Below are positions 6,092-30,197 of a stretch of 64,000 nt of DNA, one piece after another; the stretch's first letter is position 1; each line of letters opens with the position of its first letter. The position numbers were made by a program, and so were the translations under genes. The DNA comes from an uncultured Bacteroidota bacterium. Lineage in GTDB: Bacteria; Bacteroidota; Bacteroidia; Flavobacteriales; Flavobacteriaceae. Below the pieces are notes generated by a model that was not told where the DNA came from, made no database searches, and was given only the letters and a program-made list of their open reading frames with translations. Location: positions 12,224 to 76,223 of the forward strand of contig CACEKJ010000004.1 of the NCBI GenBank assembly GCA_902560045.1. The letters run 5' to 3'.

Positions 6092-6093
6092 AG

Positions 6094-7140: not shown

Positions 7141-7228
7141 GAGTGCAAATTTACATTCTTTTCGTTAAAACTATGTTAATCAAATCAGGAATATTGTCAT
7201 TTTTAATAAAAAAAATGTGGTTATGTTG

Positions 7229-7236: not shown

Positions 7237-7258
7237 TTGTTCGATTAAATTTAGTGGA

Positions 7259-9043: not shown

Positions 9044-9052
9044 AAATATATT

Positions 9053-9805: not shown

Positions 9806-9807
9806 AC

Positions 9808-11124: not shown

Positions 11125-11125
11125 A

Positions 11126-12349
11126 ATGGAAATTTTAAAAAACATAGAGTCAATTAGAAAGGATTTCCCAATTCTAAACACGAAAGTAAACGGTAATCAA
11201 TTAATATATTTTGATAATGCAGCAACTTCACAAACTCCTAATTGTGTAATCAAATCCATTTCAGATTATTATAAAAGTCTTAATTCAAATATCCACAGAG
11301 GTGTCCATAAATTAAGTCAATTAGCTACTGATAAATACGAGGAATCCAGAAAAAAGTTTAAAGAACATTTTAATGCAAGCAGTACTACTGAAATTATATT
11401 CACCCCAGGAACCACTCACAGCATTAATCTTATTTCAAACGGATTTATAAAGTTTTTAAAAAAAGACGATGAAATAATTGTTTCTCAATTGGAACATCAC
11501 AGCAATATAGTTCCATGGCAAATGCTATGTGAAAAGACTGGAGCAATTATGAAGGTTATTCCGATGAATGAAAAAGGAGAATTAAATCTTTCTAAATTTT
11601 CATCACTTTTGAATAGTAAAACAAAAATTGTTTTTGTAAATCATGTTTCAAATGCCTTAGGAACTGTTAATCCTATTGAAATTATAATTGAAAAATCTCA
11701 CCAGGCAGGAGCCGCTGTTTTGATTGATGGTGCTCAGGCTGCACCTCATTTTGAAATCGATGTTAAAAAACTCGATGTTGATTTTTATGTCTGCTCAGCT
11801 CATAAACTTTGCGGACCAACAGGCGTAGGGATTTTATATGGAAAAAAAGAATGGCTTGAAAAACTTCCTCCCTATCAAGGTGGAGGGGAAATGATTGACC
11901 AAGTATCTTTTGAAAAGTCTACCTATGCTGATCTTCCCAATAAATTTGAAGCTGGAACTCCGAATATCTCGGGGGTAATTGCCTCTGGAATAGCCTTAGA
12001 CTATATAAATAAACTTGGTCTTGAAAATATCAAGAAATACGAAGACTATTTACTTGATCATGCCACTTCCAAACTTAAAGAAATTGAAGGGGTAAAAATT
12101 TATGGAGAAGCTAAAATAAAAACTTCTGTGATATCATTTAATATTAAAAATATTCATCCCTATGATGTTGGTAGTGTTATTGACAATTTAGGAATCGCGG
12201 TTAGAACTGGGCATCATTGTGCACAACCCATTATGGATTATTTTGATATTCCTGGCACAATTAGAATCTCATTTAGTTTTTATAATACAATAGATGAAAT
12301 TAATATTTTAATTGAGGCGCTTAAAAAAGCCTCAAAAATGTTATCTTAA
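11126..12349 (+). CDS. sufS: Cysteine desulfurase, SufS subfamily (PLP-dependent)
   Basis: FDNAATSQ, the PLP-lysine region SAHKLCGPTG and the active-site loop RTGHHCAQP. ATG 11126 (MEILKN...) follows the sufD stop by 1 nt. The track's TTG at 11114 would overlap sufD. Confidence 0.9.
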   Translation: MEILKNIESIRKDFPILNTKVNGNQLIYFDNAATSQTPNCVIKSISDYYKSLNSNIHRGVHKLSQLATDKYEESRKKFKEHFNASSTTEIIFTPGTTHSINLISNGFIKFLKKDDEIIVSQLEHHSNIVPWQMLCEKTGAIMKVIPMNEKGELNLSKFSSLLNSKTKIVFVNHVSNALGTVNPIEIIIEKSHQAGAAVLIDGAQAAPHFEIDVKKLDVDFYVCSAHKLCGPTGVGILYGKKEWLEKLPPYQGGGEMIDQVSFEKSTYADLPNKFEAGTPNISGVIASGIALDYINKLGLENIKKYEDYLLDHATSKLKEIEGVKIYGEAKIKTSVISFNIKNIHPYDVGSVIDNLGIAVRTGHHCAQPIMDYFDIPGTIRISFSFYNTIDEINILIEALKKASKMLS

Positions 12350-12802: not shown

Positions 12803-13129
12803 ATGGGTAAAGAAAAATTTGATCCAAATATATTAGGTGAAAAAATAATCAAAACGATTAAAACAATTTTTGATCCTGAAATCCCTGTTGATATATATGA
12901 GCTTGGCTTAATTTATGATATTATGATAAATGAGGATTTTGATGTAAAAATTATGATGACTTTGACAACACCAAATTGTCCCGTTGCAGAAACACTTCCT
13001 GTTGATGTGGAGGAAAAAGTAAAAACTGTTGAAGGTGTAAATGACGTGAAAGTTGAAATTACATTTGAACCTGCTTGGTCACAAGATTTAATGAGTGATG
13101 AAGCTAAATTAGAATTAGGAATTTTATAG
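12803..13129 (+). CDS. SUF-associated DUF59 (MIP18/SufT-like) Fe-S assembly protein
   Basis: 108 aa with DPEIPVDIYELGLIY and LTTPNCPV motifs. Its start abuts the sufE stop. Confidence 0.85.
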   Translation: MGKEKFDPNILGEKIIKTIKTIFDPEIPVDIYELGLIYDIMINEDFDVKIMMTLTTPNCPVAETLPVDVEEKVKTVEGVNDVKVEITFEPAWSQDLMSDEAKLELGIL

Positions 13130-13132
13130 ATT

Positions 13133-14551
13133 ATGAAAAGAATAGGTATTGATGCAATTTCATACTATGTACCTTCTATTTACTTATCAATTGAAGAGCT
13201 TTCAAAAAATAGAAACTTAAATTACGAGAAGTTAAATAAAGGATTGGGGTTAGAAAAAATGGCCATCGCTGACTCAAATGAAGACCCCTCATCATTTGCA
13301 GCCAATGCATTAATTGATTTATTTGAAAAAAATAAGCTTAACCCGAAACATGTAGGAAGAATTTATATGGGTACTGAGAGTGCGCTGGATGCCTCTAAAC
13401 CTTCAGCAACTTATGCTACAGATTTGGTCGAAAAATACTTTGAAAAAGAATATGGGGAAAGATGTTTGAAAAATTGTGATATTGCTGATCTGACATTTGC
13501 ATGTATTGGCGGAGTAGATGCATTACAAAATACAATTGATTGGATATCAAGAAATCCTGGTAAAAAAGCTATTGTCGTGTCTTCAGATTTATCAAAATAT
13601 GAACTTAATTCAACAGGTGAATATACTCAAGGAGCAGGAGCGGTTGCATTACTTATTTCTGAAAATCCTTCTATTCTTTCCATTGAAAATCAATGGGGTG
13701 TCGCCACAAAGAGTGAAAACGATTTTTTTAAACCAAGAAGGGCTTTTGATAAAACGACACTTATCAATGAAATAATTTCCAAATTACAATTGAATATTTC
13801 TGACAAAGAATTTGAAAAAAACTTATCTGATTCTTCATTCTGGAATAACAATAGTGATATAATCGAAGTGTTTAAAGATGAACCTATTTTTGACGGTCAA
13901 TTTTCAAATTCGTGTTATGTTGATAGAATGCAGGAAGCATTTACTCATTTTCAAGAACAGAAAAAAACCAATTTTTTAAATGACTGGAATCACCTAATCT
14001 TTCATTTACCTTATGCTTTTCATGGTAGAAGAATGATTTTTAATAATTGGTTGAAATGGGTTAAGGATGATCCAATTTATAAAGACTTAACCAATGAAGT
14101 AGGCCCCGAGACAAATGAAGACTTCAATAAGAAAGCATATAAGTCATCACTTTATAAAGCGTTTGTTGAAAAGAAAATTTGTCCCGGTGAAAAAGCTTCT
14201 TCATCAATCGGAAACATGTATTCAGCCTCAGTTTTTATGTCACTACTTAGCATGCTTAATTATCATTTTGATAGGAATAATGAACTGGCTGGTGAAAAAG
14301 TAGGATTTATAAGTTACGGAAGTGGATCAAAAGCAAAAATATTTCAAGGTATTATCCAAGATGATTGGAAAAGTAAAATTAAAACCTCTAAACTTTTTGA
14401 CTCTTTACAAACTAGAAAAGAAATATCTTTTTCAAACTATGAAAACTTACATAAAAATAAGGATGTTTCTCCCCTGTCTAATCAAAATGCAAGATTTTCA
14501 CACACTGATAAAGAGATAAACTCTAAAGGTTATAGACGTTATAAAATTTAA
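13133..14551 (+). CDS. mvaS: Hydroxymethylglutaryl-CoA synthase (mevalonate pathway), long flavobacterial form
   Basis: Thiolase-like fold with GTESALDASKP (catalytic Glu region), FACIGGVDAL (catalytic Cys), HLPYAFHGRRM (His) and GNMYSAS. Confidence 0.8.
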   Translation: MKRIGIDAISYYVPSIYLSIEELSKNRNLNYEKLNKGLGLEKMAIADSNEDPSSFAANALIDLFEKNKLNPKHVGRIYMGTESALDASKPSATYATDLVEKYFEKEYGERCLKNCDIADLTFACIGGVDALQNTIDWISRNPGKKAIVVSSDLSKYELNSTGEYTQGAGAVALLISENPSILSIENQWGVATKSENDFFKPRRAFDKTTLINEIISKLQLNISDKEFEKNLSDSSFWNNNSDIIEVFKDEPIFDGQFSNSCYVDRMQEAFTHFQEQKKTNFLNDWNHLIFHLPYAFHGRRMIFNNWLKWVKDDPIYKDLTNEVGPETNEDFNKKAYKSSLYKAFVEKKICPGEKASSSIGNMYSASVFMSLLSMLNYHFDRNNELAGEKVGFISYGSGSKAKIFQGIIQDDWKSKIKTSKLFDSLQTRKEISFSNYENLHKNKDVSPLSNQNARFSHTDKEINSKGYRRYKI

Positions 14552-15060
14552 TGGACGAAAATATTATAAATAGAGTTCAAAAAAGCGGAATAATTACCAT
14601 CGATCTCGATGATGTTAATATTCCTGATAATTTATTTGAAATTGATATTAAAAATTGGCTTCATGATGAATTATTTTTAAAGGAAAAAGAGTATAGAAAT
14701 AATATTTTAAATCATGATTGGAGTAAATATAAAAATGGTTATGTTTTTATTCATTGCAGCAGTGATGCAATTATCCCTACCTGGGCATACATGCTTATTT
14801 CATCAAAAATTGAAGAGGTAACTGATAAAGTAGTAATTGGAGATTTGAAAAAAATTTATGACCTAATTTTTGACGAATACCTAAGTGACTTAGATTTTAC
14901 AAAATTTACAAATAAATCAGTGATTGTTAAAGGTTGTTCAAGGGAAACAATTCCTCTTTCAGCATATCATACATTAACTATAAAACTTAAACCTTTTGCT
15001 AAAAGTATTATGTATGGAGAAGCTTGCTCTGCAGTACCCGTTTTTAAAAAACCTAAATAA
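14551..15060 (+). CDS. DUF2480-family protein (conserved SUF-neighbour in Bacteroidota)
   Basis: 169 aa with the N-terminus INRVQKSGIITIDLDD typical of the family. Its ATG overlaps the mvaS stop codon by 1 nt (TAATG). Confidence 0.7.
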   Translation: MDENIINRVQKSGIITIDLDDVNIPDNLFEIDIKNWLHDELFLKEKEYRNNILNHDWSKYKNGYVFIHCSSDAIIPTWAYMLISSKIEEVTDKVVIGDLKKIYDLIFDEYLSDLDFTKFTNKSVIVKGCSRETIPLSAYHTLTIKLKPFAKSIMYGEACSAVPVFKKPK

Positions 15061-16231
15061 TTTCAGGATATAAAAAGTTATTATAAGGAAATCTTGTGAC
15101 ATGTATTTCTCTGACTTTAGAATACATTAATTCTTTTAAGTCATCAATATTTTTTTTATCCTTTGCTGAAATAAAAATTACATTTTCACCCAGTTCATTC
15201 ATCCAGGTTTTCTTCCACTGGTCTAAAGTATAGTGTTTCTTTGTTCTCTCAGTAATTAAGTCATCTTCTTCAATTTCAACTGCCTGATAATTGTCAATTT
15301 TATTAAAAACAAGTAATGTGGGTTTATTTAAAGATTTTATCTCACTTAGAATTTTTTCAACCGACTGTTTGTGTTCTTCAAAATTAGAGTGTGTAATATC
15401 AATAACATGTAATAAGAGATCTGCCTCTCGAACTTCATCCAATGTACTCTTAAATGATTCAACAAGCTGTGTTGGTAATTTTCTTATAAAACCAACAGTA
15501 TCACTGATTAAAAAGGGAAGGTTTCCAATAACTAATTTTCTAACCGTAGTATCTAAAGTTGCAAACAACTTATCTTCTGCAAATACTTTTGACTTACATA
15601 ATAAATTCATCAAAGTAGATTTTCCAACATTGGTATAGCCAACGATTGCAACACGAACAAGCTTTCCTCTGTTACCTCTTTGGACATGCATTTGCTTATC
15701 AATTGCCTTAATCTTATTCTTTAATAATGAAATTTTATTTCGTACTATTCTCCTATCAGTTTCAATTTCAGTTTCTCCGGGACCTCTCATTCCAATACCC
15801 CCTTTTTGCCTTTCGAGATGTGTCCACATTCCTTTTAGTCTAGGAAGTAGATATTGACATTGTGCGAGCTCAACCTGTGTTTTTGCATAACTAGTCTTGG
15901 CTCTTTGAGCAAAAATATCTAGTATCAGATTTGTTCTATCAAGAATTTTACAATTAAATATTTTGCTAATATTTCTTTCTTGTGTAGCAGAAAGTTCGTC
16001 GTCAAAAATTACAGTTTGAATATTATTTTCTTTTATGTATTCACGAATTTCGTTTATTTTTCCCTCACCAATAAAGGTTTTTGGATTTGGGTTATTTAAC
16101 TTTTGGGTAAAAGTTTTAGTCACGGTTCCGCCAGCGGTCATTGTTAAAAAAGCCAATTCATCTAAATAGTCCATTGACTTCTCTAGTCCTTGCTCGTGAG
16201 TTATAATTCCTATAAGTACGGTTTTTTCCAA
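15053..16231 (-). CDS. hflX: GTPase HflX
   Basis: HflX N-terminal domain plus G-domain motifs GYTNVGKST, DTVGF and NKID. Confidence 0.9.
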   Translation of the reverse strand: MEKTVLIGIITHEQGLEKSMDYLDELAFLTMTAGGTVTKTFTQKLNNPNPKTFIGEGKINEIREYIKENNIQTVIFDDELSATQERNISKIFNCKILDRTNLILDIFAQRAKTSYAKTQVELAQCQYLLPRLKGMWTHLERQKGGIGMRGPGETEIETDRRIVRNKISLLKNKIKAIDKQMHVQRGNRGKLVRVAIVGYTNVGKSTLMNLLCKSKVFAEDKLFATLDTTVRKLVIGNLPFLISDTVGFIRKLPTQLVESFKSTLDEVREADLLLHVIDITHSNFEEHKQSVEKILSEIKSLNKPTLLVFNKIDNYQAVEIEEDDLITERTKKHYTLDQWKKTWMNELGENVIFISAKDKKNIDDLKELMYSKVREIHVTRFPYNNFLYPEII

Positions 16232-16269
16232 CTTTTAAAATATTCAGGTTGACAAATTTAAGCTAATTA

Positions 16270-16277
16270 TAAATTTG
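16270..16277 (+). promoter_or_regulatory. Candidate promoter of the T9SS type-B cargo locus (-7 TAAATTTG; -33 TTG at 16249-16251)
   Basis: Matches TAnnTTTG with a TTG 18 nt upstream. It lies in the 113-bp gap between divergent hflX and cargo gene 1. Confidence 0.35.
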
Positions 16278-16344
16278 ATTATCAAAAATCATAATTTTTC
16301 ATATTCCATTTGTATATTTAAGTAACTAATCAAATACATTTAAC

Positions 16345-19300
16345 TTGAGATATATAATAATATTTGTGTTAAGTATTTTTCATCTAACTACTTATGCACA
16401 GCAGAATTTAACTGTTGATTGTACTGCTGGTCCAGTTTCTACAACTTTTTGTTATGACACTGGTCTAGACAACAGCTATACTTTCACCTCCAATGACGGA
16501 ACACCTTTAAACTTAACCATTGATGAAGGTCAAGTGGAAAACAATTGGGATGAGTTAGTCATCCGTGATTCTGATGGAACTGAATTATATAATGGCTACG
16601 GAAACGTAGGTGATATCTCAGGACTAACCTTTCAATCTAGTGGGGATACAATTGAATTTGAAGTAGTTGAAGATGGAAGTATCAGTTGTGTATCGTCTGG
16701 ATATATCCCTATCACATTTACAGTATCATGTGCTACATGTATAAATCCACAAGTTAATTATGAAGTTGTTTCTGATTGTTTAAATGCTCCTCAATTTTTT
16801 GTAGATGTGGATGTAGTTGACCTAGGATCTGCTGGAAGTTTAACACTTTCAGATAATCAAGGAAATAGTTCAAGTGTAAATAATACAGGAACTGTTCAGT
16901 TTGGTCCTTATGCAAATAATACAGATGTACAATTTACAGCAGAAAATGATGATGATGTGAATTGCTCAATTTCAAGTGGATCTTTAACCCAAGAATATTG
17001 TGCAGTTACATTGGTTGATTGTGGGGTTGGACCCGTATCGAGCTCATACTGTTCTGGAAATAATGATACTACACAATTCGAATACGTTAGCTCTGACGGA
17101 TCCCCCTTAAATCTTACAATTGATTCGGGAAATGTTGAAAATAATTACGATGAACTTGTAATTGTTGACTCCGATGGAGTAACTGAGCTATATAATGGCT
17201 ATGGAAATTCTGGAGATATAACAGGACTAACTTTTCAGTCTTCTGGAAATACCATTTATTTTTCGGTTATTTCTGATGGGTCTGTAAGTTGTCAATCCGG
17301 ATCTGGTGCATTAGCAGACGGAATTAATTATACTGTGGCTTGTGCTACTTGTACAAACCCATCTGCTGAATATACGGTAATTGACGATTGTGCCAATGGA
17401 GATCAATTCTTGATCGATGTTAATATTACAAGTATGGGTGACGCAGATTCATTAACAATTTCTGATAACTATAGCACAAATACGGAACAAACTACTACGA
17501 CTGGTATTGTACAAATGGGGCCTTATCCATTCTTAACCGATATTGTAATTACAACATCTAACGACCAAGATGTAAACTGTGTAATAAATAGTAATCCAAT
17601 ACAATTATTTGCATGCCCGCCAGAAAATGATAATTGTAGTGGGGCAATAGAAGCAGTGGTAAATGCTGATCAGTCATGTAGCTTAACAACTCAAGGGACA
17701 TTAAGTGGCGCCTCCTATTCTGGAAATGACAGTAGTTGCTTAGCCGATATGGATGATGATGTGTGGTTTTCTTTTTCAGCACTAAGTGAAGTACAATCTA
17801 TTTCGATTCAAAATATAAGCGGAAGCACAAGTAACCTAGGTCATGCACTTTATGTTGGAACTGGAGATGTCTTATGTAGTACTCTTGAGGAGTTATATTG
17901 TGTCAATGAAACTGCGAGTGTCACTACGGACCTTACCATCGGAGTAACCTATCACGTCAGGGTTTTCTCCATTGGTCAAGAGCCTCAAGATGTTAATTTT
18001 GATTTATGTATAAGTGATGCTCCAGATAATACAGTTTGTGATAACGCTACAAATTTTTGTGGGGAAGGTGGAGCTCTTTACGGGGCAAACATATTTGATT
18101 ATCCTAGTCTTGGACAGATAGCCTGCTTGTATACAACTCCTAATCCATCGTGGAATACAATTCAAATTGGTGAGTCAGGAGACATTGATATTCAAATCAC
18201 TCAAAATACAGCATTTGACGATGATGGAAATGCAGTTGGAGCTGGGTTAGATGTAGATTTTGTAATATGGGGCCCTTTTGAAGCAGGATATAATTTTTGT
18301 GAAGATGGTATTCTTGACCAAGGCTGTCCTGACCCTGGAAATTGTCCAAATAATACCTCTAATGCAAACTTCTACCCATATGGAAACATTATTGATTGTA
18401 GCTACTCAGTATACAGTGTCGAAAATCTAACTATTGAAAATGCACTGGCCGGAGAAGTTTATATACTACTTGTGACAAATTACTCTAATAACCCTGGAAT
18501 AATTCAAATTGAGCAAACCAATGCCGGTGAGAATGGAGCTGGTTCTACTGTTGGGGAAATTGAAGTTGATTTGGGAAGCGATCAAACTTTTTGTGGATTC
18601 CCTGAATATGAAATTGTAGCAGAGGCTCCTTTTGGAGATTACTTCGAGTGGTATATTGACGGGGAGTTTATTGATAGTACAGAAAACAATTCTTTAGTGG
18701 TTAGCGAAACAGGTGAATATTCCGTGATTGTTTATGATCAACAATGTGGTTCTTCTGCTGAAGATTCTGTGCAAATAAATCTTTACCCAGAGTCTTATGC
18801 TTATACAACAGAAGATATAATAACATGTGACGACAGTTCAGACGATGGAGTTGAAAATTTTGATCTCTCTATTCAAAATGAAAATATTCTTGGAGGTCAA
18901 GATCCAGATGAATATTTAGTTACATATTATGAAACATTACAAGATGCTCAGTCTGGTGAAAATTCGGTAAGCACAGACTATACTAATACATCAAATCCAC
19001 AACAAATTTTTGCAAGAGTGGAAAATGTTGATGCTGTAGGTTCAAATTCTGGTTGTTTCTCAATCTCTGATTTTATGATTGAGGTAACAGGTGCTGTGCC
19101 TGATGCAATTTCACCTGAAGAGTATGTTTTATGTAATCCATTAGACCTTTCAAACACGCAAGTCTTTGATTTGAGTTCACAAAATGAAATTATTTTAGAA
19201 GGTCAAAATGTTGACAATTTTGAGGTTACCTATCATCTCTCTGAAGAAGATGCATTAAACGGTGTTAACTCTTTGGATACTCAATACCAAAATATCAGTA

Positions 19301-19632
19301 ATCCCCAGACTGTGTATGCGAGAGTTGAAAGCAACAATGCATTTGATTGTTTTAGCACTACAAGTTTTGATCTTGTAATTTGTTTAATTCCGGAAGGAAT
19401 ATCTCCAAATAATGATGGATATAATGATAGTTTTGAACTTAAAGGATATGATGTCAAAAGTTTAAAAATATACAATAGATATGGAAAGCTGGTATTTAGT
19501 ACAACAAACTATAATGACACATGGGAAGGACAATCAAATGAAGGAAATAAATTACCTGTTGGAACTTATTTTTATCATATGATTTACGATGAAAATTTAG
19601 AAAAAACAGGATGGGTATATGTAAACTATTAA
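16345..19632 (+). CDS. T9SS type-B (gliding-motility-associated C-terminal domain) cargo protein 1, 1,095 aa multidomain surface protein
   Basis: TTG start and signal peptide (…HLTTYAQQ). Two ~200-aa CUB-like/Cys-rich repeats are followed by a Cys-containing 'DDDVWF' domain and an Ig-like module. Next come two copies of the 'FDL..QN..IL.GQ....V.Y..S..DA..G.N......Y.N..NPQ..YARVE' repeat. The C-terminus PEGISPNNDGYNDSFEL...VGTYFYHMIY...VYVNY is the TIGR04131-type CTD. Confidence 0.85.
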   Translation: MRYIIIFVLSIFHLTTYAQQNLTVDCTAGPVSTTFCYDTGLDNSYTFTSNDGTPLNLTIDEGQVENNWDELVIRDSDGTELYNGYGNVGDISGLTFQSSGDTIEFEVVEDGSISCVSSGYIPITFTVSCATCINPQVNYEVVSDCLNAPQFFVDVDVVDLGSAGSLTLSDNQGNSSSVNNTGTVQFGPYANNTDVQFTAENDDDVNCSISSGSLTQEYCAVTLVDCGVGPVSSSYCSGNNDTTQFEYVSSDGSPLNLTIDSGNVENNYDELVIVDSDGVTELYNGYGNSGDITGLTFQSSGNTIYFSVISDGSVSCQSGSGALADGINYTVACATCTNPSAEYTVIDDCANGDQFLIDVNITSMGDADSLTISDNYSTNTEQTTTTGIVQMGPYPFLTDIVITTSNDQDVNCVINSNPIQLFACPPENDNCSGAIEAVVNADQSCSLTTQGTLSGASYSGNDSSCLADMDDDVWFSFSALSEVQSISIQNISGSTSNLGHALYVGTGDVLCSTLEELYCVNETASVTTDLTIGVTYHVRVFSIGQEPQDVNFDLCISDAPDNTVCDNATNFCGEGGALYGANIFDYPSLGQIACLYTTPNPSWNTIQIGESGDIDIQITQNTAFDDDGNAVGAGLDVDFVIWGPFEAGYNFCEDGILDQGCPDPGNCPNNTSNANFYPYGNIIDCSYSVYSVENLTIENALAGEVYILLVTNYSNNPGIIQIEQTNAGENGAGSTVGEIEVDLGSDQTFCGFPEYEIVAEAPFGDYFEWYIDGEFIDSTENNSLVVSETGEYSVIVYDQQCGSSAEDSVQINLYPESYAYTTEDIITCDDSSDDGVENFDLSIQNENILGGQDPDEYLVTYYETLQDAQSGENSVSTDYTNTSNPQQIFARVENVDAVGSNSGCFSISDFMIEVTGAVPDAISPEEYVLCNPLDLSNTQVFDLSSQNEIILEGQNVDNFEVTYHLSEEDALNGVNSLDTQYQNISNPQTVYARVESNNAFDCFSTTSFDLVICLIPEGISPNNDGYNDSFELKGYDVKSLKIYNRYGKLVFSTTNYNDTWEGQSNEGNKLPVGTYFYHMIYDENLEKTGWVYVNY
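16414..17645 (+). repeat. Copy 1 of a base-perfect 1,232-bp direct repeat (partner 19802-21033)
   Basis: Line-by-line comparison at an offset of 3,388 bp, plus identical ORF translations (Val24-Ala434 versus Val25-Ala435). I saw no mismatch. Confidence 0.9.
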
Positions 19633-19729
19633 TCTCTAGTAGATTATCTTGTTATTTATTAAAATAAATACTAGTTTTAGTTCAATTGAGACCAAATTAG
19701 ATTACACATCCAACTATCAATAAATTAAT

Positions 19730-22700
19730 ATGAGAAGATATCTATTCTTTATTGCTCTGTTTTTAACAGGTCAACTTATACACGCGCAGCAGAATTCAAC
19801 CGTTGATTGTACTGCTGGTCCAGTTTCTACAACTTTTTGTTATGACACTGGTCTAGACAACAGCTATACTTTCACCTCCAATGACGGAACACCTTTAAAC
19901 TTAACCATTGATGAAGGTCAAGTGGAAAACAATTGGGATGAGTTAGTCATCCGTGATTCTGATGGAACTGAATTATATAATGGCTACGGAAACGTAGGTG
20001 ATATCTCAGGACTAACCTTTCAATCTAGTGGGGATACAATTGAATTTGAAGTAGTTGAAGATGGAAGTATCAGTTGTGTATCGTCTGGATATATCCCTAT
20101 CACATTTACAGTATCATGTGCTACATGTATAAATCCACAAGTTAATTATGAAGTTGTTTCTGATTGTTTAAATGCTCCTCAATTTTTTGTAGATGTGGAT
20201 GTAGTTGACCTAGGATCTGCTGGAAGTTTAACACTTTCAGATAATCAAGGAAATAGTTCAAGTGTAAATAATACAGGAACTGTTCAGTTTGGTCCTTATG
20301 CAAATAATACAGATGTACAATTTACAGCAGAAAATGATGATGATGTGAATTGCTCAATTTCAAGTGGATCTTTAACCCAAGAATATTGTGCAGTTACATT
20401 GGTTGATTGTGGGGTTGGACCCGTATCGAGCTCATACTGTTCTGGAAATAATGATACTACACAATTCGAATACGTTAGCTCTGACGGATCCCCCTTAAAT
20501 CTTACAATTGATTCGGGAAATGTTGAAAATAATTACGATGAACTTGTAATTGTTGACTCCGATGGAGTAACTGAGCTATATAATGGCTATGGAAATTCTG
20601 GAGATATAACAGGACTAACTTTTCAGTCTTCTGGAAATACCATTTATTTTTCGGTTATTTCTGATGGGTCTGTAAGTTGTCAATCCGGATCTGGTGCATT
20701 AGCAGACGGAATTAATTATACTGTGGCTTGTGCTACTTGTACAAACCCATCTGCTGAATATACGGTAATTGACGATTGTGCCAATGGAGATCAATTCTTG
20801 ATCGATGTTAATATTACAAGTATGGGTGACGCAGATTCATTAACAATTTCTGATAACTATAGCACAAATACGGAACAAACTACTACGACTGGTATTGTAC
20901 AAATGGGGCCTTATCCATTCTTAACCGATATTGTAATTACAACATCTAACGACCAAGATGTAAACTGTGTAATAAATAGTAATCCAATACAATTATTTGC
21001 ATGCCCGCCAGAAAATGATAATTGTAGTGGGGCTGTTCAAATAGAAGCTAATGATGGTGGAGAATGTATTTCATCAGGATCAGGTACACTTGTAGCAGCC
21101 ACGCCCTCTTCTGAGCCTAACTCATGTGATGGATCTGCTGATGATGATGTATGGTTTGAATTCACAGCAGTTTCTGAAAATCATGCAATTTCTCTATCTA
21201 ATATAGTGGGCGATACACAAGACTTATATCATGTGCTTTACCAAGGTGATGATTGTGGTAATTTAACCCAAATATACTGTAGTGATGATGAAAATAGTAC
21301 AGCTAATGACTTGTCAGTTGGAGAAAATTATTTTGTAAGGGTATATTCCTATACAGCCAATGAGCTATCCAATCTAACTTTTGATATTTGTGTATTCACT
21401 GTGCCTCCTCCGATATTTACAAGTACAACATTGTATACAGTGGAAGAATTAGTAACGGATGTTTTGATTGATTCTGAATGTAATCAATCCTTCAATATAT
21501 CTTCCAGCACTGGATCTGATTTTGGAAGCACTAACGGAATTGGTTATTTTGAATCTAATGGTTCTAGTTGGCCTTTTGAAAATGGTTTAATAATGACCTC
21601 TGGTGATGTTGCAAATGCAGTTGGTCCAGAAAGTGGAGTTATCAGTGATGGAGATTATAACTGGCCTGGTGACGCAGATTTAGAAGCATATATTCCTGGT
21701 TTAAATGCGGGAGATACAAATAATGCATCTATCTTAGAATTTAATTTTGTGCCTGTTTCAAACAATATAAGTTTTGACTTCATTTTTGCTGCAGAAGAAT
21801 ACGGCACATTTCAATGTACTTTTACAGATGCCTTTGCATTTCTTCTTACTGACTCATCTGGAAATACTACAAATCTCGCTATTGTTCCCGGAACAACTGA
21901 TCCAATTTCTGTTCTTACAGTTAGGGATGGGCAATACAATGATTCTTGCGAATCAGTAAATGAAGAATGGTTTGCAGATTACTATGGACCTGGAGGTCTT
22001 CCTCCTTTAACTAGTCCTACTAATTTTTTAGGCCATACAGAGGTAATGACTGCTCAATCTAACGTGACTCCAAATGAACTTTATACAATTAAACTAGTTG
22101 TTGCAGATGATGGCGATACACTATACGACTCTGCAGTATTTATAGACGGAGGAAGCTTTGATATTGGTCAGCTTGATCTGGGTGAAGACATTTTAGTATC
22201 ATCTGGAAATGCTCTCTGTGAAGGTCAAGAAATTGTTTTAGATGCCGGAGCATTACCTAACAATTCTTCTATTGAATGGTTTATGGATGGGTCATTAATA
22301 GAAAATGCCAATGACGTAACACTAGTAGTTACCGAAACCGCTTTTTATAGTGCTACTATCACTGTAGACAATACTGATTGTAGTTATTCTGACGATATAC
22401 TTGTTGAATTTTTCCAATCGCCAGTAATTGTCCCCGTTAATGATTACGTGATTAAATGTGCAAATGAAGGATTTGAATTGGAAGTAAATATTGAAAATAT
22501 TGATCAACTAAATTCATTGACTTACATATGGACACTTGACGGAGTTGATCTTCAAATAGGCCCTGATAATACGTATTATTTAGATGAAAATTCTGAAGAA
22601 TCTGGAGAATTTACCGTAACGGTATTTGATGATTTGACCTACTGCTGGAATTCTACAACAATTGATATTGAATTTTATGAAAATAGATATTGTGTTGATC

Positions 22701-22960
22701 TTCCTCAAGGCTTATCACCCAACGGAGACGGTTTCAATGATTGTTTAATTTTAGATCATTTGGAAGACGAAGAAGATATAGACAGAATTGATGTATTTAA
22801 CAGATATGGAACTAAAATATATGAGTTAAATGATTATGTTGATCAGTGGTGTGGTGATAATCAGGATGGTGAAATAATGCCTGTAGGCACCTATTTTTAT
22901 ATCATTTATTTTAATTCATCTAAAGAGCCGATAACAAGTTGGATTTATCTTAACTATTAA
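19730..22960 (+). CDS. T9SS type-B cargo protein 2, 1,076 aa, with a choice-of-anchor-L-like domain
   Basis: ATG start and a different signal peptide (MRRYLFFIALFLTGQLIHAQQ). The N-terminal 411-aa module is identical to cargo 1, followed by a diverged 'DDDVWF' domain. The next region (TVEELVTDVLIDS...SILEFNFVP.SNNISFDFIFAAEEY...TDAFAFLL) resembles choice-of-anchor L. Ig-like modules follow, and the C-terminus PQGLSPNGDGFNDCLIL...VGTYFYIIYF...IYLNY is a type-B CTD. Confidence 0.85.
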   Translation: MRRYLFFIALFLTGQLIHAQQNSTVDCTAGPVSTTFCYDTGLDNSYTFTSNDGTPLNLTIDEGQVENNWDELVIRDSDGTELYNGYGNVGDISGLTFQSSGDTIEFEVVEDGSISCVSSGYIPITFTVSCATCINPQVNYEVVSDCLNAPQFFVDVDVVDLGSAGSLTLSDNQGNSSSVNNTGTVQFGPYANNTDVQFTAENDDDVNCSISSGSLTQEYCAVTLVDCGVGPVSSSYCSGNNDTTQFEYVSSDGSPLNLTIDSGNVENNYDELVIVDSDGVTELYNGYGNSGDITGLTFQSSGNTIYFSVISDGSVSCQSGSGALADGINYTVACATCTNPSAEYTVIDDCANGDQFLIDVNITSMGDADSLTISDNYSTNTEQTTTTGIVQMGPYPFLTDIVITTSNDQDVNCVINSNPIQLFACPPENDNCSGAVQIEANDGGECISSGSGTLVAATPSSEPNSCDGSADDDVWFEFTAVSENHAISLSNIVGDTQDLYHVLYQGDDCGNLTQIYCSDDENSTANDLSVGENYFVRVYSYTANELSNLTFDICVFTVPPPIFTSTTLYTVEELVTDVLIDSECNQSFNISSSTGSDFGSTNGIGYFESNGSSWPFENGLIMTSGDVANAVGPESGVISDGDYNWPGDADLEAYIPGLNAGDTNNASILEFNFVPVSNNISFDFIFAAEEYGTFQCTFTDAFAFLLTDSSGNTTNLAIVPGTTDPISVLTVRDGQYNDSCESVNEEWFADYYGPGGLPPLTSPTNFLGHTEVMTAQSNVTPNELYTIKLVVADDGDTLYDSAVFIDGGSFDIGQLDLGEDILVSSGNALCEGQEIVLDAGALPNNSSIEWFMDGSLIENANDVTLVVTETAFYSATITVDNTDCSYSDDILVEFFQSPVIVPVNDYVIKCANEGFELEVNIENIDQLNSLTYIWTLDGVDLQIGPDNTYYLDENSEESGEFTVTVFDDLTYCWNSTTIDIEFYENRYCVDLPQGLSPNGDGFNDCLILDHLEDEEDIDRIDVFNRYGTKIYELNDYVDQWCGDNQDGEIMPVGTYFYIIYFNSSKEPITSWIYLNY
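19802..21033 (+). repeat. Copy 2 of the base-perfect 1,232-bp direct repeat
   Basis: See copy 1. Just upstream of the repeat (19784-19801 versus 16396-16413) there are 3 mismatches, and further upstream the sequences are unrelated. Immediately downstream, nucleotide identity collapses. Confidence 0.9.
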
Positions 22961-22970
22961 TAAATTAATT

Positions 22971-23882
22971 ATGAAAAAAAGAGTTTTAGTTATACTTATT
23001 TTGCTAATTGCATTTAATATTAATGCACAGCAAGACCCACAGTATACGCAATATATGTATAACATGAATGTTATAAATCCGGCATATGCTGGATCTGGTG
23101 ATGGTGCAAGTTTTGGTATTTTGTACAGAGACCAGTGGGAAGGTTTAGAGGGGGCTCCCAAGACAGCAACAATGAATGTTCATTTTCCAGCTGGAAGAAA
23201 TGTTGGACTTGGATTCTCAGCCATTTCTGATGAAATTGGACCTGTAAGTGAAACAAATTTATATGTTGATTTTTCCTATACATTAAATTTTTCAAATGAT
23301 AATAGACTAGCTTTTGGTGTAAAAGCAGGAGGAACTTTTCATGATGTGGGCTTAATTGATTTAAGCTTAATAGATCCAAATGATCCTTTCTTTGCAAATG
23401 ATATTAATGAAAACACACCCAATGTTGGTGCTGGAATATATTTTTATAAACCAAATAACTACTACATTTCGGTTTCCGTTCCAAATATTTTAGAATCTGT
23501 TCATTTAGACAATAATGATTTTAATATTGGTTCTGAAACCAGGCATATCTTTGCTGCTGCTGGATATGTTTTTGATATAAATGAAAATTTTAAATTTAAG
23601 CCGCACACATTTGTGAAATATGCTTCACAGTCTCCAATTAGTTTGGATGTAAATGCCAATCTTTTTATGTATGATTTAGTGGAGATTGGTGCAGGATATA
23701 GAACTGATGATTCAATAACTGCAATGATAAATTTTATGGTGTCGCCATCAATTAGAATTGGATATGCATATGACAGTATTCAGTCTGAATTAAACTTTTT
23801 GACAAAAGCATCACACGAAATTTTTATCAATTTTGATATTAACTTTAAATCTAAAGTATCTAGATCACCAAGATATTTCTAA
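22971..23882 (+). CDS. PorP/SprF-family type IX secretion system outer-membrane protein
   Basis: After the signal peptide comes the family signature QQDPQYTQYMYNMNVINPAYAG. 303-aa beta-barrel-like protein located 10 bp after the cargo 2 stop. Confidence 0.9.
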   Translation: MKKRVLVILILLIAFNINAQQDPQYTQYMYNMNVINPAYAGSGDGASFGILYRDQWEGLEGAPKTATMNVHFPAGRNVGLGFSAISDEIGPVSETNLYVDFSYTLNFSNDNRLAFGVKAGGTFHDVGLIDLSLIDPNDPFFANDINENTPNVGAGIYFYKPNNYYISVSVPNILESVHLDNNDFNIGSETRHIFAAAGYVFDINENFKFKPHTFVKYASQSPISLDVNANLFMYDLVEIGAGYRTDDSITAMINFMVSPSIRIGYAYDSIQSELNFLTKASHEIFINFDINFKSKVSRSPRYF

Positions 23883-23899
23883 TTGTATAATACTTTATT

Positions 23900-25789
23900 A
23901 TGAAAAAGACCTTAACATTAATACTTGTAACATTATTTAGTTATTCTTTTGTGTTTTCACAAAATAATTCAACGAAGAAAGCTGATCGACTTTATGATCG
24001 ACTTCAATTTGTAAAAGCTGCTGAGGAATATCTTAAATTAAGCGACTCAGAATTAAATTCTGATTATGTTATAACCAAACTTGCCAATTGTTATTACAAT
24101 TTATTTGAAACAAGTGAGGCGGAAAAATGGTTTAAAAAAATAGTTAACAAGAATCCTGACGCGGAATTAATATACAAATATTCGCAAATGCTTAAAGCCA
24201 ACGGAAAATATAAAGAATCAAATTTATGGATGAATAAATTTTCTGAAATGAAACCTTATGACTCAAGAGCAGTATCGTTTAAAAACACACCTAATTACAT
24301 TGATAAAATTATCAATAAGGGTAAAAGATTTAACATTCAAAACCTTAAAATTAACTCTGAGTATTCAGATTTTGGAGCAACTATTTATAAAAATAAATTA
24401 TATTTTGTTTCATCTAGAAATGAAAAAGCAACAAGCAGAAACTATGGGTGGAACGATGAACCTTTTTTAGATATTTTTTCCTCAACAATTAACGATAAAG
24501 GATCACATCTTCCTGCAGATTTATTTGACGAACTTAACAGTAAGTTTCATGAAGGTATTGTTTCCTTTACTCCTGAAGGAAACACAGCTTACTTTACTAG
24601 AGAAAGTTACTATGAAGACGAATATCAGAAAGACAGTTTGAATAATACAAAATATAGTCAACTGTACATATACAAAGCTACCAAATTAAAGGATTCTTGG
24701 GATACTTTTGAATCTCTTGAAATAAATGATGTAAATTTTTCAAATAAAAACCCAATGGTCAGCCCGGACGGTAAACATCTTTATTTTTCTTCAAACATGC
24801 CAGGTGGATTTGGACTATATGACTTGTATAAAGCTGAGATAAAAGATGATGGTTCTTTGGGTAAAGCAGAAAACTTAGGGCAAAAAATTAACACGGAAGG
24901 TCAAGAAGCTTTTCCTTTTATAACTGGTGAAAATATGATATACTTTTCGTCTGATGGTCATTTAGGCTTGGGAGGATTAGACGTGTTTTATTCAAAAAAT
25001 GTTGACGATAAATGGTCAAATTCAAAAAATGTGGGTATTCCAGTAAATAGTGGAGCAGACGATTTTGCCTTTATGATCAAAGAAGAAAATGGTTATGTTT
25101 CTTCAAATAGAACTGGTGGAGTTGGAAAAGATGATATATATGCTTTGAAAAAAATAAGACCTTTGTGTGATTTGTTACTTGAAACTGTTGTTTTAGATTC
25201 TAAAACAAACAACCCTATTGAAACGGCATTAACCTCTGTTTCAGACGGAGTAGGAACTATTAATAACAGTAAAACAACAAATGAAAAGGGTCTTGTAGAG
25301 TTTATGATTGAATGTGAAAACGATATAAAATTTGTTGTTAGTAAAGAGGGGTATGAAAGTAAAATATTAGACATTAAATTACTAGATATTGACCCTCCTT
25401 TATTAGAAGTAATGCTTGATCCGATAGAAGAACTTATTGTTGAGGAAAAAGTTGAGCTTAGTCCAATCTATTTTGAATTTGACAAATTTAACATCACAAA
25501 TGAAGGTGCATTTGAATTAGATAAACTTGTTGCCATAATGCAAAAATATCCTGAAATGAAAATTAGAGTAGAAGCTCACACAGACAACAGAGGGCCAAGC
25601 TCATATAATTTAAAACTTTCTGAAAATAGAGCTAAATCAACAGCACAGTATATTATTTCAAAAGGTATTGATGAAAATAGAATCTCTGGGGTTGGAAAAG
25701 GTGAAAATGAACCTGTCATAGAATGCTCTGGAAGTTGTTCAAATGAAGATCATAGAACAAATAGAAGATCAGAATTTATAATACTATAA
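23900..25789 (+). CDS. OmpA-family protein with N-terminal TPR-like region, TolB-like beta-propeller repeats, CarboxypepD_reg-like domain and C-terminal OmpA peptidoglycan-binding domain
   Basis: The C-terminus carries FEFDKFNITNEG...VEAHTDNRGPSSYNLKLSENRA...NRRSEF (OmpA_C). The middle region has repeated 'YF.S.R.GG.G..D.Y' propeller blades. This is the usual partner of PorP/SprF in type-B cargo operons. Confidence 0.85.
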   Translation: MKKTLTLILVTLFSYSFVFSQNNSTKKADRLYDRLQFVKAAEEYLKLSDSELNSDYVITKLANCYYNLFETSEAEKWFKKIVNKNPDAELIYKYSQMLKANGKYKESNLWMNKFSEMKPYDSRAVSFKNTPNYIDKIINKGKRFNIQNLKINSEYSDFGATIYKNKLYFVSSRNEKATSRNYGWNDEPFLDIFSSTINDKGSHLPADLFDELNSKFHEGIVSFTPEGNTAYFTRESYYEDEYQKDSLNNTKYSQLYIYKATKLKDSWDTFESLEINDVNFSNKNPMVSPDGKHLYFSSNMPGGFGLYDLYKAEIKDDGSLGKAENLGQKINTEGQEAFPFITGENMIYFSSDGHLGLGGLDVFYSKNVDDKWSNSKNVGIPVNSGADDFAFMIKEENGYVSSNRTGGVGKDDIYALKKIRPLCDLLLETVVLDSKTNNPIETALTSVSDGVGTINNSKTTNEKGLVEFMIECENDIKFVVSKEGYESKILDIKLLDIDPPLLEVMLDPIEELIVEEKVELSPIYFEFDKFNITNEGAFELDKLVAIMQKYPEMKIRVEAHTDNRGPSSYNLKLSENRAKSTAQYIISKGIDENRISGVGKGENEPVIECSGSCSNEDHRTNRRSEFIIL

Positions 25790-25799
25790 ATAACCTTTT

Positions 25800-25833
25800 A
25801 ATCGAGAAGGATATATTAATATTCTTCTCGATT
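25800..25833. terminator. Inverted repeat/hairpin between convergent genes (possible bidirectional terminator)
   Basis: A perfect 10-bp stem AATCGAGAAG/CTTCTCGATT is extendable by 5 more pairs around a 4-nt loop. Caveat: the flanking runs are T-run then hairpin then A-run, the reverse of a canonical U-tract arrangement. The stem also overlaps the osmC-like stop codon. Confidence 0.4.
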
Positions 25834-26239
25834 AAAAATTATAAAAAACCTCCTGCACTAAATCTTTACTCAAACTTTGTGCTACAGGACATCCTTTAGC
25901 TACAGCAATTAGTTTTTCCTTTTGCTGGTCAGATAAATTGTTTTTTTCAAAGTTTATTTCTAAGATAATCTTTGAAATTCTTCTTGGATTTGAAGACATT
26001 ACCTTAGTTACATTTGATTTTGAATTGGGTAATTCAAAATTATTTTTTTCAGCGCATATACCCATAACAGTAGTCATACAGCTACATAAAGCAGAAGCAA
26101 CTAAGTCAGTCGGGGAAAATGCATTTCCTTTTCCATTATTATCGGTTGGAGCATCAGTTATTATTGTTCTTGATGACTTTAAATGAGTAGATTCTGTTCT
26201 AAGGTCTCCTAGATACCGGTTTTCTATAGAATGTGACAT
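25832..26239 (-). CDS. OsmC/Ohr-family peroxiredoxin-like protein
   Basis: 135 aa with the two conserved Cys contexts (ALCSCMTTVMG and AKGCPV). Confidence 0.8.
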   Translation of the reverse strand: MSHSIENRYLGDLRTESTHLKSSRTIITDAPTDNNGKGNAFSPTDLVASALCSCMTTVMGICAEKNNFELPNSKSNVTKVMSSNPRRISKIILEINFEKNNLSDQQKEKLIAVAKGCPVAQSLSKDLVQEVFYNF

Positions 26240-27614: not shown

Positions 27615-30197
27615 TTAAAATCTAAAGTATAAGTTTAAAAAGTAGTTAGTTCCTCTACCATACCAGTATTTAGGACCAAAAACTCTTTTTGGGTTATTAG
27701 TATCTTGTAGTAATTCTTGATAGTTGGCATTTCTTCCTTGTTCGAATCCTCCTGTTCTATATTTTTGATTAAGAACATTATTTATACTGGCAAAAAAACC
27801 AACATAATAATCTTCAATTTTCCATGACTTACCACCAATTATATTAACAACCATGTAGTCATCAAATTTTTCTTGTCTCAATAAATCCCTTGCAATATCT
27901 AAATCATAGTCATTAAAAGGAAGACCGTCTTGAGCCAGATAAAAATTTTGAGTTCTCGTTAACGGGCTGATATCAACATATGTATTTGTGAAAAAATTTG
28001 AGGTAACTCCAACAAACCAGTAATCAGGATCTCTGTATTCGAAACCAAATGAATAGGCTTTCTGTGGACCTCCAGCTAGTTTATAATTTTTTAGTTTGGA
28101 AGGACCTACAGCTACAGTATTTTCATCCGCTCCTAAATATAAATAAGGGTCGTTATCATATGTATATTGACCAACAGAAGCTGCTGCCTTTAACTTGACA
28201 GAAGAAATTATTTGAGCTTCAACTCCAAATTCTAAGCCAAGATATTTTTTGTCAATACCTTGTAAGATTTCCTGGACGAATTCACTATCGTCTTGAAATC
28301 CAACTAGACCATCTGCATAATAGAAAGAAATTTCATTAGCGTCTTTTACTTCAGAGTAAAACCCAGTTATTCTACCATTAAATATTGGGGTTCTAAATAT
28401 ATAATTAGCATCAAATGACATTATTTTTTCCTCAGTAATTGGCGTATCGTTAATTAGACCGTTAACATCACTACCTACTACATTATGATTCACCCTTGAG
28501 TTTGTGTATGTGTTTCTAATTGAAGGCGCTTTTTGTATGTATGCAGAATTAAAATCAATTATATGTTTTCCTGAAAATTTGTATGTTAAACCTGTTTTAA
28601 GTCCATAACCATCAAAAGAAATTTTGTCACCTAAACCAGCAGAATTACCTACATTGGCTTCGTTTTCAAAAACTCCGTCTCTTTGATAGTTGGTATTTGT
28701 AACATTACCCGCAATAAAAAATTCAAGTTTATTAAATGAAAAATCAACCATTGCAAAAGCACTAAGTTCGTCAACATTCATTTTGTAATGATATCTGAAT
28801 TTATCACCTTCAGAAGCAATGCTGTTTGGCACTAATAGATTGTAATCAAGAAAATCAAACGAATCAATGTTTGAATAACCTGAGCCTCCTAACATATCTG
28901 TAATTTCAGCAAAATTATCAGAGATTAAATTTCTGTAATTAACAGATGTGCTAATTTTAATATTATCATTAATCTCTCTTAAATATGCAGAGTTAAAAGT
29001 AATTTGAGAGTCATCAACTCTATCTTCATATAAGACGTAGGCCGCATTTATATTTGCCAGATTATTTGTGATGTTTGCATCATAGATTCGATTCCAATTT
29101 ATCTGGCCGTTATTGACAAAGTTTTCTTGGGCTATGTATGCTCCCTGATAATCGGGGCCATTGCTGTCAGCAAGAAAGTAACTGGGCAAATCCTGATAAT
29201 ACGCAGGGCTTGGATTAGATCCTCCAGCATAACCTAATCTACTATTTCCCATTTCTCCAAACTGGAATCCTATACTTGTTTCCAAAGATGAATTTTCATC
29301 AATTATCCAATCATGATTTAAAATTACAATTGGCTCAACAACCCTTTTTACTCTTGAATTTCTTTTTTCACCATCTTGCCATCCCCAATATTCATTATAC
29401 TTTGTTCCTTTTAAATCATACACCTCTTGTGTATTCGGTGATACTTTACCTCGTCTATTTGGTGCATAAATCATTGCAAGATTTAAGCTATGCTTGTTGT
29501 TAAATATTTTTTGAACAGATAAAAATGCTGAATTAGAGTCATAGAATGAAGCATCTTGATATCCTTCATTACCCCACCTTCTTCCAATTGATAAAGAATA
29601 TGACCAACCCTTTGGGAGCATCCCTGAGTTATAGGTTGCCATTAATCTATTTGCATAACTTCGATTTGAAGAAGAATAGGTTATTCTACCTCCCTGACCA
29701 TACTCTGATGCTCTGATGTTTATATTATTTGATCCTAAAATGCCTCCAAAATTATATTTAAGAGGGATAGAGCCGTTTGATAATTCTTGGTTTCTTAAAA
29801 CATCGTTTAATCCACCCCAATTACTCCATTGAGGTCTTCCATTATACAGCTTATTCATTTTAATCCCGTTTATCTGGACAATTGCATTGTCAGAATCTAA
29901 ACCTCTAACTTTGAAAAAAGAGGAGCTAAATTCATATGCTGCTGTACGATAAAAAACATCCATCGATGAATTTAACAATCCAGAAATATTATCAGAAGCA
30001 GAAGTATCGTCATTTAATTCATCATCACTTAGTGAAATACTGAATAGATCTAAAACATCATCAGTTACAGATAAATCTGAGATCGTATCTGTTGAAATGG
30101 TTTGATTGGCTTCGGATTGAGAATAAAGATTGAAGTTTATAAATAAAATTATAACAAATATTAATCTTGTTTTGTGCATATTAATAAATATTTTCAA
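27615..30197 (-). CDS. TonB-dependent receptor (not SusC-type; no SusD partner)
   Basis: Signal peptide (the start may be the internal Met at 30179). Plug region FKVRGLDSDNAIVQINGIKMN.., a long beta-barrel and a terminal aromatic residue ...NLYFRF. Confidence 0.85.
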   Translation of the reverse strand: MKIFINMHKTRLIFVIILFINFNLYSQSEANQTISTDTISDLSVTDDVLDLFSISLSDDELNDDTSASDNISGLLNSSMDVFYRTAAYEFSSSFFKVRGLDSDNAIVQINGIKMNKLYNGRPQWSNWGGLNDVLRNQELSNGSIPLKYNFGGILGSNNINIRASEYGQGGRITYSSSNRSYANRLMATYNSGMLPKGWSYSLSIGRRWGNEGYQDASFYDSNSAFLSVQKIFNNKHSLNLAMIYAPNRRGKVSPNTQEVYDLKGTKYNEYWGWQDGEKRNSRVKRVVEPIVILNHDWIIDENSSLETSIGFQFGEMGNSRLGYAGGSNPSPAYYQDLPSYFLADSNGPDYQGAYIAQENFVNNGQINWNRIYDANITNNLANINAAYVLYEDRVDDSQITFNSAYLREINDNIKISTSVNYRNLISDNFAEITDMLGGSGYSNIDSFDFLDYNLLVPNSIASEGDKFRYHYKMNVDELSAFAMVDFSFNKLEFFIAGNVTNTNYQRDGVFENEANVGNSAGLGDKISFDGYGLKTGLTYKFSGKHIIDFNSAYIQKAPSIRNTYTNSRVNHNVVGSDVNGLINDTPITEEKIMSFDANYIFRTPIFNGRITGFYSEVKDANEISFYYADGLVGFQDDSEFVQEILQGIDKKYLGLEFGVEAQIISSVKLKAAASVGQYTYDNDPYLYLGADENTVAVGPSKLKNYKLAGGPQKAYSFGFEYRDPDYWFVGVTSNFFTNTYVDISPLTRTQNFYLAQDGLPFNDYDLDIARDLLRQEKFDDYMVVNIIGGKSWKIEDYYVGFFASINNVLNQKYRTGGFEQGRNANYQELLQDTNNPKRVFGPKYWYGRGTNYFLNLYFRF

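Follow-up and report, generated by a model that had tools for sequence, protein, structure and literature searches.

The two cargo genes and their locus

A 64,000-nucleotide stretch of DNA from an uncultured bacterium of the Flavobacteriaceae (contig CACEKJ010000004.1; in the following, the window) carries two tandem genes for type IX secretion system (T9SS) cargo proteins, which share one N-terminal module. Cargo 1 (16345..19632, + strand) starts with TTG and encodes 1,095 amino acids (aa), while cargo 2 (19730..22960, + strand) starts with ATG and encodes 1,076 aa. The open reading frame (ORF) calls agree with the initial annotation on both start codons. Both proteins carry the type-B sorting domain (PF13585 with 81 and 78 bits at a cut-off of 27; TIGR04131 with 52.8 and 43.1 bits at a cut-off of 35). 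In cargo 1, the signal peptide and the module are followed by a GBD_T9SS_assoc-like domain, an uncharacterised region and a CHU_C C-terminal domain (CTD; aa 1015-1093). In cargo 2, the signal peptide, the module and the GBD_T9SS_assoc-like domain are followed by a choice-of-anchor-L domain (aa 598-810), which is found in this cargo only, and by the CHU_C CTD (aa 990-1074).

The third domain (d3), directly 3' of the module, matched the galactose-binding-like family PF23759 in both cargo 1 (17647..18084, + strand; E 1.2e-5) and cargo 2 (21035..21472, + strand; E 3.6e-9). The two copies of d3 share about 50% of their nucleotides (nt) and 38-40% of their amino acids. The initial annotation had described low-identity homology over about 130 aa past the module, and about 146 aa were indeed homologous at this level. 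Its further statement that the architectures are unrelated beyond that point did not hold fully, as a weak match (25% over 187 aa) and the same CTD class were found.

Downstream, the cargo genes are followed by a gene for an outer-membrane protein of the PorP/SprF family (22971..23882, + strand; PF11751 6.9e-82; TIGR03519 263 bits, cut-off 90.55). Next to it lies a gene for a PorE-like or CHU_0125-like protein of the OmpA family (23900..25789, + strand) with tetratricopeptide repeat (TPR), beta-propeller and OmpA parts and with OmpA and PD40 matches in Pfam. This protein aligned over its full length with NF052230 and NF053607 at scores below their cut-offs (333 bits against 600 and 385 bits against 620, respectively). 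The gene for the GTPase HflX (15053..16231, - strand; TIGR03156 432 bits) served as the upstream synteny anchor. Type-B cargos bind PorP-like proteins, and PorP-PorE-like pairs have been proposed as the link that holds non-mobile cargos at the cell wall (Gorasia et al. 2022, PMC9143113). The locus resembles the cassette described there in that a gene with a type-B CTD adjoins porP/sprF-like and porE-like genes. It differs in that two cargos with an identical head precede one such pair. By analogy with this published work, cargo 1 and cargo 2 appear to share one PorP/PorE-like anchor pair and are presumably displayed on the surface through PorP.

A scan for sigma-70 promoters and terminators gave background levels only, with a model not suited to Bacteroidetes. 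Exact-protein look-ups of both cargos in a public gene catalogue yielded no match, while the neighbouring PorP was present on 23 contigs. Relatives in the catalogue were therefore traced through PorP.

Extent and edges of the repeat

The module is encoded by a direct repeat with copies at 16414..17645 in cargo 1 and 19802..21033 in cargo 2 (both + strand). In a base-by-base self-comparison at an offset of 3,388, the two copies formed a single perfect run of 1,232 nt, and the second-longest identical run around the repeat was 11 nt. Thus, the identity reported by the initial annotation was correct in coordinates and description, with 0 differences. The repeat covers the first 411 mature residues of both cargos.

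Pairwise alignment across the repeat gave no mismatches inside the tract and abrupt edges. The 18 nt upstream (16396..16413, + strand), which code for the end of the signal peptide (AQQN-x-T), differ from 19784-19801 at exactly three positions, the number given previously. Blastn joined this shoulder to the repeat as 1,250 nt at 99.76% identity. At the 3' end, the first mismatch (17646/21034) is the third base of the Ala434/Ala435 codon (GCA versus GCT), again as annotated. Outside the repeat, identity per 60 nt was 33-45% upstream and 27-60% downstream.

A blastn self-search detected no further copies of the module and no other long repeats in the 64-kb window, and no inverted repeats were found between 14 and 26 kb. 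Silent cassettes were absent from the window, with both module copies located in complete ORFs with start codon and signal peptide. No recombinase or mobile element was found near the repeat, the neighbours being Suf, HMG-CoA synthase (HMGS), HflX, OsmC, TonB-type receptors and IleRS.

Predicted fold of the module

No Pfam or NCBIfam family was found for the 411-aa module. It consists of two internally duplicated units, each about 200 aa long (16414-17016 and 17017-17646), which are 54% identical in amino acid sequence. An AlphaFold2 model built on 41 sequences reached a mean predicted local distance difference test (pLDDT) score of 89.8. The top Foldseek matches in the PDB were the tandem-CUB proteins PCPE-1, C1r/C1s, MASP-2, cubilin and neuropilin (E 1e-8 to 1e-6, probability 1.0). 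The template modelling (TM) scores of these matches were low over the whole model because the query holds four domains. Further matches to the model were fragments of the grappling-hook T9SS protein from Aureispira. Pfam CUB (PF00431) gave no match to the units of the window at E <= 1, and the homologue P0019 scored just below its threshold (20.1 bits, cut-off 21.4). From the AlphaFold2 and Foldseek results only, each unit is read as a CUB-like domain plus a beta-sandwich. In other genera, three or four such units were observed in tandem within one gene (L029, L137, L124, L145).

Modules are more alike within than between genomes

Among the species-representative genomes scanned, 73 loci were found. 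Ten of these, all from single-amplified genomes (SAGs) or metagenome-assembled genomes (MAGs) of uncultured marine Flavobacteriaceae, had the same gene order as the window, namely HMGS-DUF2480-HflX(-)-cargo1-cargo2-PorP-OmpA. Together with the window, they formed the 11 genome loci that were compared. The TTG start of cargo 1 was kept in all orthologues, and its contrast with the ATG start of cargo 2 was conserved as well.

The cargo 1 and cargo 2 modules were homogenised in 10 of the 11 loci, with 88.8-100% identity within a genome and at least 97% in nine of them. Over the 1,232 nt, the two modules differed at 0 positions in the window and L011, at 1-7 positions in L014, L015, L016, L017, L022 and L023, and at 32 positions in L018. 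In L021, 150 differences were counted, with identity only from +324 to +1226, and in L012, with 371 differences, no homogenisation was seen. Metagenome contigs with two copies formed a continuum of paralogue identity (100, 99.9, 99.6, 99.2, 99.1, 97.7, 93.9, 86.5 and 85.0%). Median nucleotide identity of the module was 99.8% within genomes as compared to 61-92% between orthologues (mean 71.5%). In the 10 homogenised loci, homogenisation covered the tract wholly or for the most part.

For d3, the pattern was reversed. Paralogues were about 50% and orthologues 61-91% identical in nucleotide sequence, and d3 clustered by gene across species. Since d3 and synteny cluster by gene, the duplication is older than these species and the module has repeatedly been re-homogenised. 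The within-genome identity includes synonymous sites, and synonymous divergence (dS) between genomes ranged from 0.33 to saturation (above 2), with values of 0.33-1.4 for the module; hence, constraint at the protein level does not explain it. The ratio of nonsynonymous to synonymous divergence (dN/dS) of the module was 0.04-0.10, which indicates purifying selection on the proteins. Diversifying selection on the head, a candidate considered separately, was rejected on these values.

This pattern is, as far as sequence comparison can tell, the signature of recurrent interlocus gene conversion (concerted evolution) and not of a single event. The proposal of very recent gene conversion in the initial annotation was thus supported, and at least nine further genomes at species level show an independent homogenisation of the same gene pair. 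The tandem layout, and an identity that is higher within than between genomes, would also be expected if each lineage had duplicated the gene recently and independently, instead of converting an old pair. Under that explanation, however, every lineage would need the same module-only duplication, inserted at the same codon. Moreover, the remainder of each gene clusters by gene as d3 does, and gene order, flanks and the TTG/ATG starts are conserved. Independent duplications were rejected on the orthology shown by d3 and by the C-terminal parts and are considered extremely improbable.

A fixed 3' border and a mobile 5' border

Of the ten homogenised genomes, nine have the 3' border of the homogenised tract at the same codon of the motif CPPxNDNCxGA. 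The exception was L018, where a gradient of divergence precedes the junction. The domain-precise borders claimed for the window were therefore borne out at this junction. The 5' border was variable, with L022 and L113 (beyond -201) at one extreme and L021 (+324) at the other. Between them, the border falls at 0 in the window, at +1 in L015, around -20 in L014 and L016, and at -66 or -63 in L011 and L017, whose tracts take in the complete signal peptide. Partial tracts were found in L021, L018 and the SAGs AG-313-F11 and AH-321-D14.

The 3' border is probably fixed since d3, with about 50% nucleotide identity, is too diverged for strand exchange. A functional difference between the d3 domains of the two cargos is possibly an added reason. 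The mobility of the 5' border is likely due to signal peptides being interchangeable.

In L022 (5254-7365 = 9134-11245) and L113 (927-3053 = 5114-7240), the identical tract of 2.1 kb extends over promoter region and signal peptide and over an additional N-terminal domain of about 290 aa. In the sister genome L023, this extra domain was present in cargo 2 only; sequence lacking upstream homology would thus have been copied onto cargo 1.

Long repeats between type-B cargo loci were also seen elsewhere. An Algicola MAG (L067) carries cargo genes 8.3 kb apart with 2,282 identical nt (1-2282 = 8346-10627) and a border at the same junction. Another such repeat is L053:5473-6813 = 12908-14248, and L055, L044 and L073 are similar cases. 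In the Algicola MAG, Mesonia profundi, Mangrovimonas and Psychroserpens, repeats of 1.1-2.7 kb with 90-100% identity connect type-B cargo loci 8-9 kb apart; the Mesonia repeat consists of a cargo gene end and the start of PorP. Such repeats may be widespread in Flavobacteriaceae.

Old core types and the latest conversion

The second CUB-like core of the module occurs in two old types, type a (GNVENNYDELVIVDSDGVTELYNGYGN) and type c (GLIEAGWDIIIVTDSDGSILFQGDNGG). Types a and c are 62% identical in nucleotide sequence as compared to 73-77% within a type across species, and no such split was seen in the flanks. The window carries the a-type in both cargo 1 (core at approximately 17102..17412, + strand) and cargo 2 (approximately 20490..20800, + strand). 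The close relatives L051, L058 and L052 have the a-type in cargo 1 (91-96% aa identity). In their flanks, the conspecific contigs L085, L131, L004, L007 and L002 agree with the window at about 95-97% (mostly at least 90%, on average about 95%), and their cargo 2 contains a divergent c-type stretch, some 300 nt in length, with only 63-79% identity to the window (about 20500-20800). Thus, the initial description of a homogenised module holds for the window, but it does not extend to all strains, since divergent CUB-like cores persist in some.

Genomes with the a-type in cargo 1 and the c-type in cargo 2, i.e., in the unconverted state, were L012 and the SAGs AG-313-F11 (L058/L066) and AH-321-D14 (L052/L061). 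The contigs of both SAGs break exactly at the end of paralogue identity. Type a was found in both cargos of the window, L011, L017, L018, L022 and L023, and type c in both cargos of L014-16, L021 and L088. The occurrence of both outcomes across lineages indicates that conversion runs both ways. Since unconverted strains are a/c and the window is a/a, the donor was cargo 1 and the recipient cargo 2. The c-type retained by conspecific strains indicates that the event is younger than the divergence within the species. Taken together, the sequences indicate that the latest conversion in the window was recent, ran from cargo 1 to cargo 2 and covered at least the second CUB-like core, which marks its minimal footprint. 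The first 300 nt or so of the window module resemble the cargo 2 alleles of unconverted strains, and the 3' part resembles cargo 1 alleles. These mixed affinities require at least two events in opposite directions. Thus, the recent date proposed in the initial annotation was supported, while its single event gave way to recurrent and bidirectional conversion.

The first CUB-like core is polymorphic too (a1 versus b), and core types occur at differing positions among genomes. The b-type was found in cargo 1 of L012 and in cargo 2 of L093 and L096, and the c-type in unit 1 of L021 cargo 2. The b-type cores, which have a TPAQPFYG insertion, were among those resembling cores of the other unit in other lineages, which hints at exchange between units.

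A cargo 2 allele without d3 (937 aa instead of 1,076 aa) was observed in the same or closely related species (L012:10164-12629; L002:1198-4011; L110, L112, L120), and it goes together with the unconverted c-type core. When the close relatives L064, L125, L051 and L085 were compared with window positions 13133-26239, HMGS, DUF2480 and HflX were 98-100% identical in amino acid sequence, and the cargo 1 body was 80-93% identical. By this comparison, divergence or recombination has a local hot-spot in the cargo genes.

Candidate deletion products and hybrid genes

The initial annotation had predicted that recombination between the copies deletes a 3.4-kb unit and leaves one gene with the promoter and signal peptide of cargo 1 and the body of cargo 2. 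A single-gene order HflX-module-cargo 2 body-PorP without the cargo 1 body was found on nine metagenome contigs (L086, L090, L105, L108, L109, L110, L119, L135, L139). In L110, the upstream region, the TTG start and the signal peptide are of the cargo 1 type, and the module is a mosaic. From about +300 on, it matches the cargo 2 allele of L012 at 90-100% identity, for the most part at 95% or above, and the switch point lies near the longest perfect run (27 nt) common to the two L012 copies. Judged by its sequence, L110 is the best candidate for a 3.4-kb deletion product. In addition, the protein P0009 combines a cargo 1 signal peptide with a cargo 2 d3, and the protein P0036 a cargo 2-like signal peptide with a cargo 1 d3; the two are reciprocal hybrid types.

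The single-gene state was observed in 0 of 8 SAGs versus 9 of 25 metagenome contigs (Fisher p = 0.07), and many of the single-gene contigs, which look the same as a collapse of the tandem loop by the assembler would, may be just that. Thus, the predicted deletion found candidates on contigs but none among the SAGs, and the deletion route for the 3.4-kb unit is no more than plausible.

These hybrids bear on the possibility that the repeat has been selected as a device for recombination. In that case, population variation in the combinations of heads and stalks on a shared PorP would have two sources: identical heads or the switching of a, b and c cores at the four CUB positions on the one hand, and RecA-mediated deletion or re-duplication of the 3.4-kb unit on the other. 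The age of the dimorphic cores, which exceeds that of the species, their placement at different positions (L012, L093, L096, L021), and the single-gene contigs and hybrids would fit such a device. However, the low dN/dS gives no sign of diversifying selection, the distribution of the single-gene state between SAGs and metagenomes looks as if many cases were assembly collapses, and neither silent cassettes nor a dedicated recombinase were found. Neutral conversion explains the data, and a selected device is unlikely. Slightly less doubtful, but still unlikely, is a small recombining system of cassettes made up of the four CUB-like positions (two units in each of the two genes), in which conversion reassorts the old cores a/a1, b and c among positions and genes and the repeat mediates deletion and re-duplication of 3.4 kb.

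Recurrent gene conversion as proposed explanation

We propose that an ancient tandem duplication gave two T9SS type-B surface-protein genes upstream of one PorP/SprF plus PorE-like pair. The heads would have been kept near-identical in each genome by homologous recombination between the tandem copies, recurrent and non-reciprocal (interlocus gene conversion). From d3 onward, the genes would be too diverged (about 50% nt) to recombine and would evolve independently, thereby fixing the 3' border. In the window lineage, the last event would have transferred the second CUB-like core, if not more, from cargo 1 to cargo 2 after the split from the conspecific strains, leaving 1,232 nt without any difference between the copies. 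The sequences themselves show the identity and its borders, the contrast within versus between genomes, the direction of the last event and the fold class; the mechanism is presumably of the RecA type and without a dedicated enzyme. We assign a probability of about 0.8 to this explanation, an old tandem pair whose heads are re-homogenised by recurrent gene conversion.

Several observations weigh against it. The module showed no excess of G+C at third codon positions (GC3) relative to its flanks, so it bears no independent mark of long-term biased conversion. The mechanism itself, with its RecA dependence and with conversion rather than cycles of unequal crossing-over, is something we only infer. 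The genomes compared were for the most part SAGs or MAGs assembled from short reads, and there an assembler can pass through a tandem loop along one collapsed graph edge. Bubble-popping can render copies of about 99% identity exactly identical, and the identity in the window is perhaps in part an effect of assembly or polishing.

The last two points lead to the artefact that the initial annotation had raised. In this reading, the true copies would be similar only, or cargo 2 would hold a c-type core, and one collapsed repeat edge would have been threaded twice. At 1.2 kb, the repeat exceeds a short read in length, many contigs of related SAGs are broken within the module (L051, L052, L058, L061, L063, L064, L066), the exact cargo proteins are missing from the public gene catalogue although their PorP is present, and conspecific contigs hold a different core in cargo 2. 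On the other hand, near-identity was found in at least 17 independent assemblies from differing pipelines, including the 396-kb contig L118 (1 mismatch). Assemblers kept 1-165 mismatches as well as fully diverged copies (L012), copies below about 98% identity would not collapse, and a 3' border conserved at a domain junction can be explained biologically. As many SAG, MAG and metagenome assemblies show the pattern independently, an artefact is improbable as a general cause and quite unlikely for the window, where the exact zero is that of the assembly.

Other features of the window

A second large uncharacterised T9SS cargo is encoded by a 1,278-aa ORF at 2279-6115 (- strand), which has a type-A tail (Por_Secre_tail) and no other Pfam match at E <= 1e-5. 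An 860-aa ORF at 27615-30197 (- strand) adjoins a DUF5689/DUF5017 gene and gave no Pfam match at E <= 1e-5. No tRNA genes and no Rfam families were detected at threshold in the whole 64-kb window. Among the comparison sequences, the first 120 nt or so of L020, at the end of a MAG contig, are rich in G+C, unlike the remainder, and look like sequence from a vector, an adapter or a chimera.

Comparison with known systems and significance

Concerted evolution by gene conversion is known for the tuf genes and for the bab paralogues of Helicobacter pylori. As in babA/babB of H. pylori, surface-protein paralogues at the present locus have near-identical segments beside differing ones, allele placement varies between strains, and chimeras occur. 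The present case differs in that tandem T9SS type-B cargos of free-living marine Flavobacteriaceae are affected, that the CUB-like head ends at a fixed junction, and that host immune pressure is not evident and dN/dS is low. With pilE/pilS of Neisseria and vlsE of Borrelia, the locus has in common non-reciprocal recombination between homologous segments of surface genes. In contrast to these systems, there are no promoterless silent cassettes but two complete, presumably expressed genes, and the outcome is mainly homogenisation. Cassette-type antigenic variation was rejected because silent cassettes are lacking, both genes are complete and no recombinase lies nearby.

A survey of concerted evolution across prokaryotes found long-lasting cases to be rare, with 26 genes, mostly subunits of core complexes, and none from Bacteroidetes (PMC6053082). 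Like those cases, the cargo modules are closer between paralogues within a species than between orthologues in many lineages, trace to one old duplication by synteny, and are homogenised at synonymous sites as well. Unlike them, a single module of a multidomain surface protein is involved, L012 has escaped, and divergent islands persist inside the tract. A literature search on gene conversion in flavobacterial T9SS cargo genes returned nothing relevant. The process is ordinary interlocus gene conversion and mechanistically unsurprising, and, to judge by this search, it has not been described before for T9SS type-B cargos.

In assemblies of these organisms, the repeat breaks or collapses short-read contigs; as a consequence, gene catalogues hold truncated or possibly chimeric cargo proteins. 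If the four CUB-like positions did act as recombining cassettes, abundant uncultured populations of marine flavobacteria would switch the binding heads displayed on a single PorP/PorE-like anchor. The uncharacterised head of two CUB-like and beta-sandwich units, common to two cargos, is an entry point to what these cells bind. The locus offers a clean single-module case of concerted evolution in widespread uncultured marine Flavobacteriaceae, with natural "before" and "after" states within one species.

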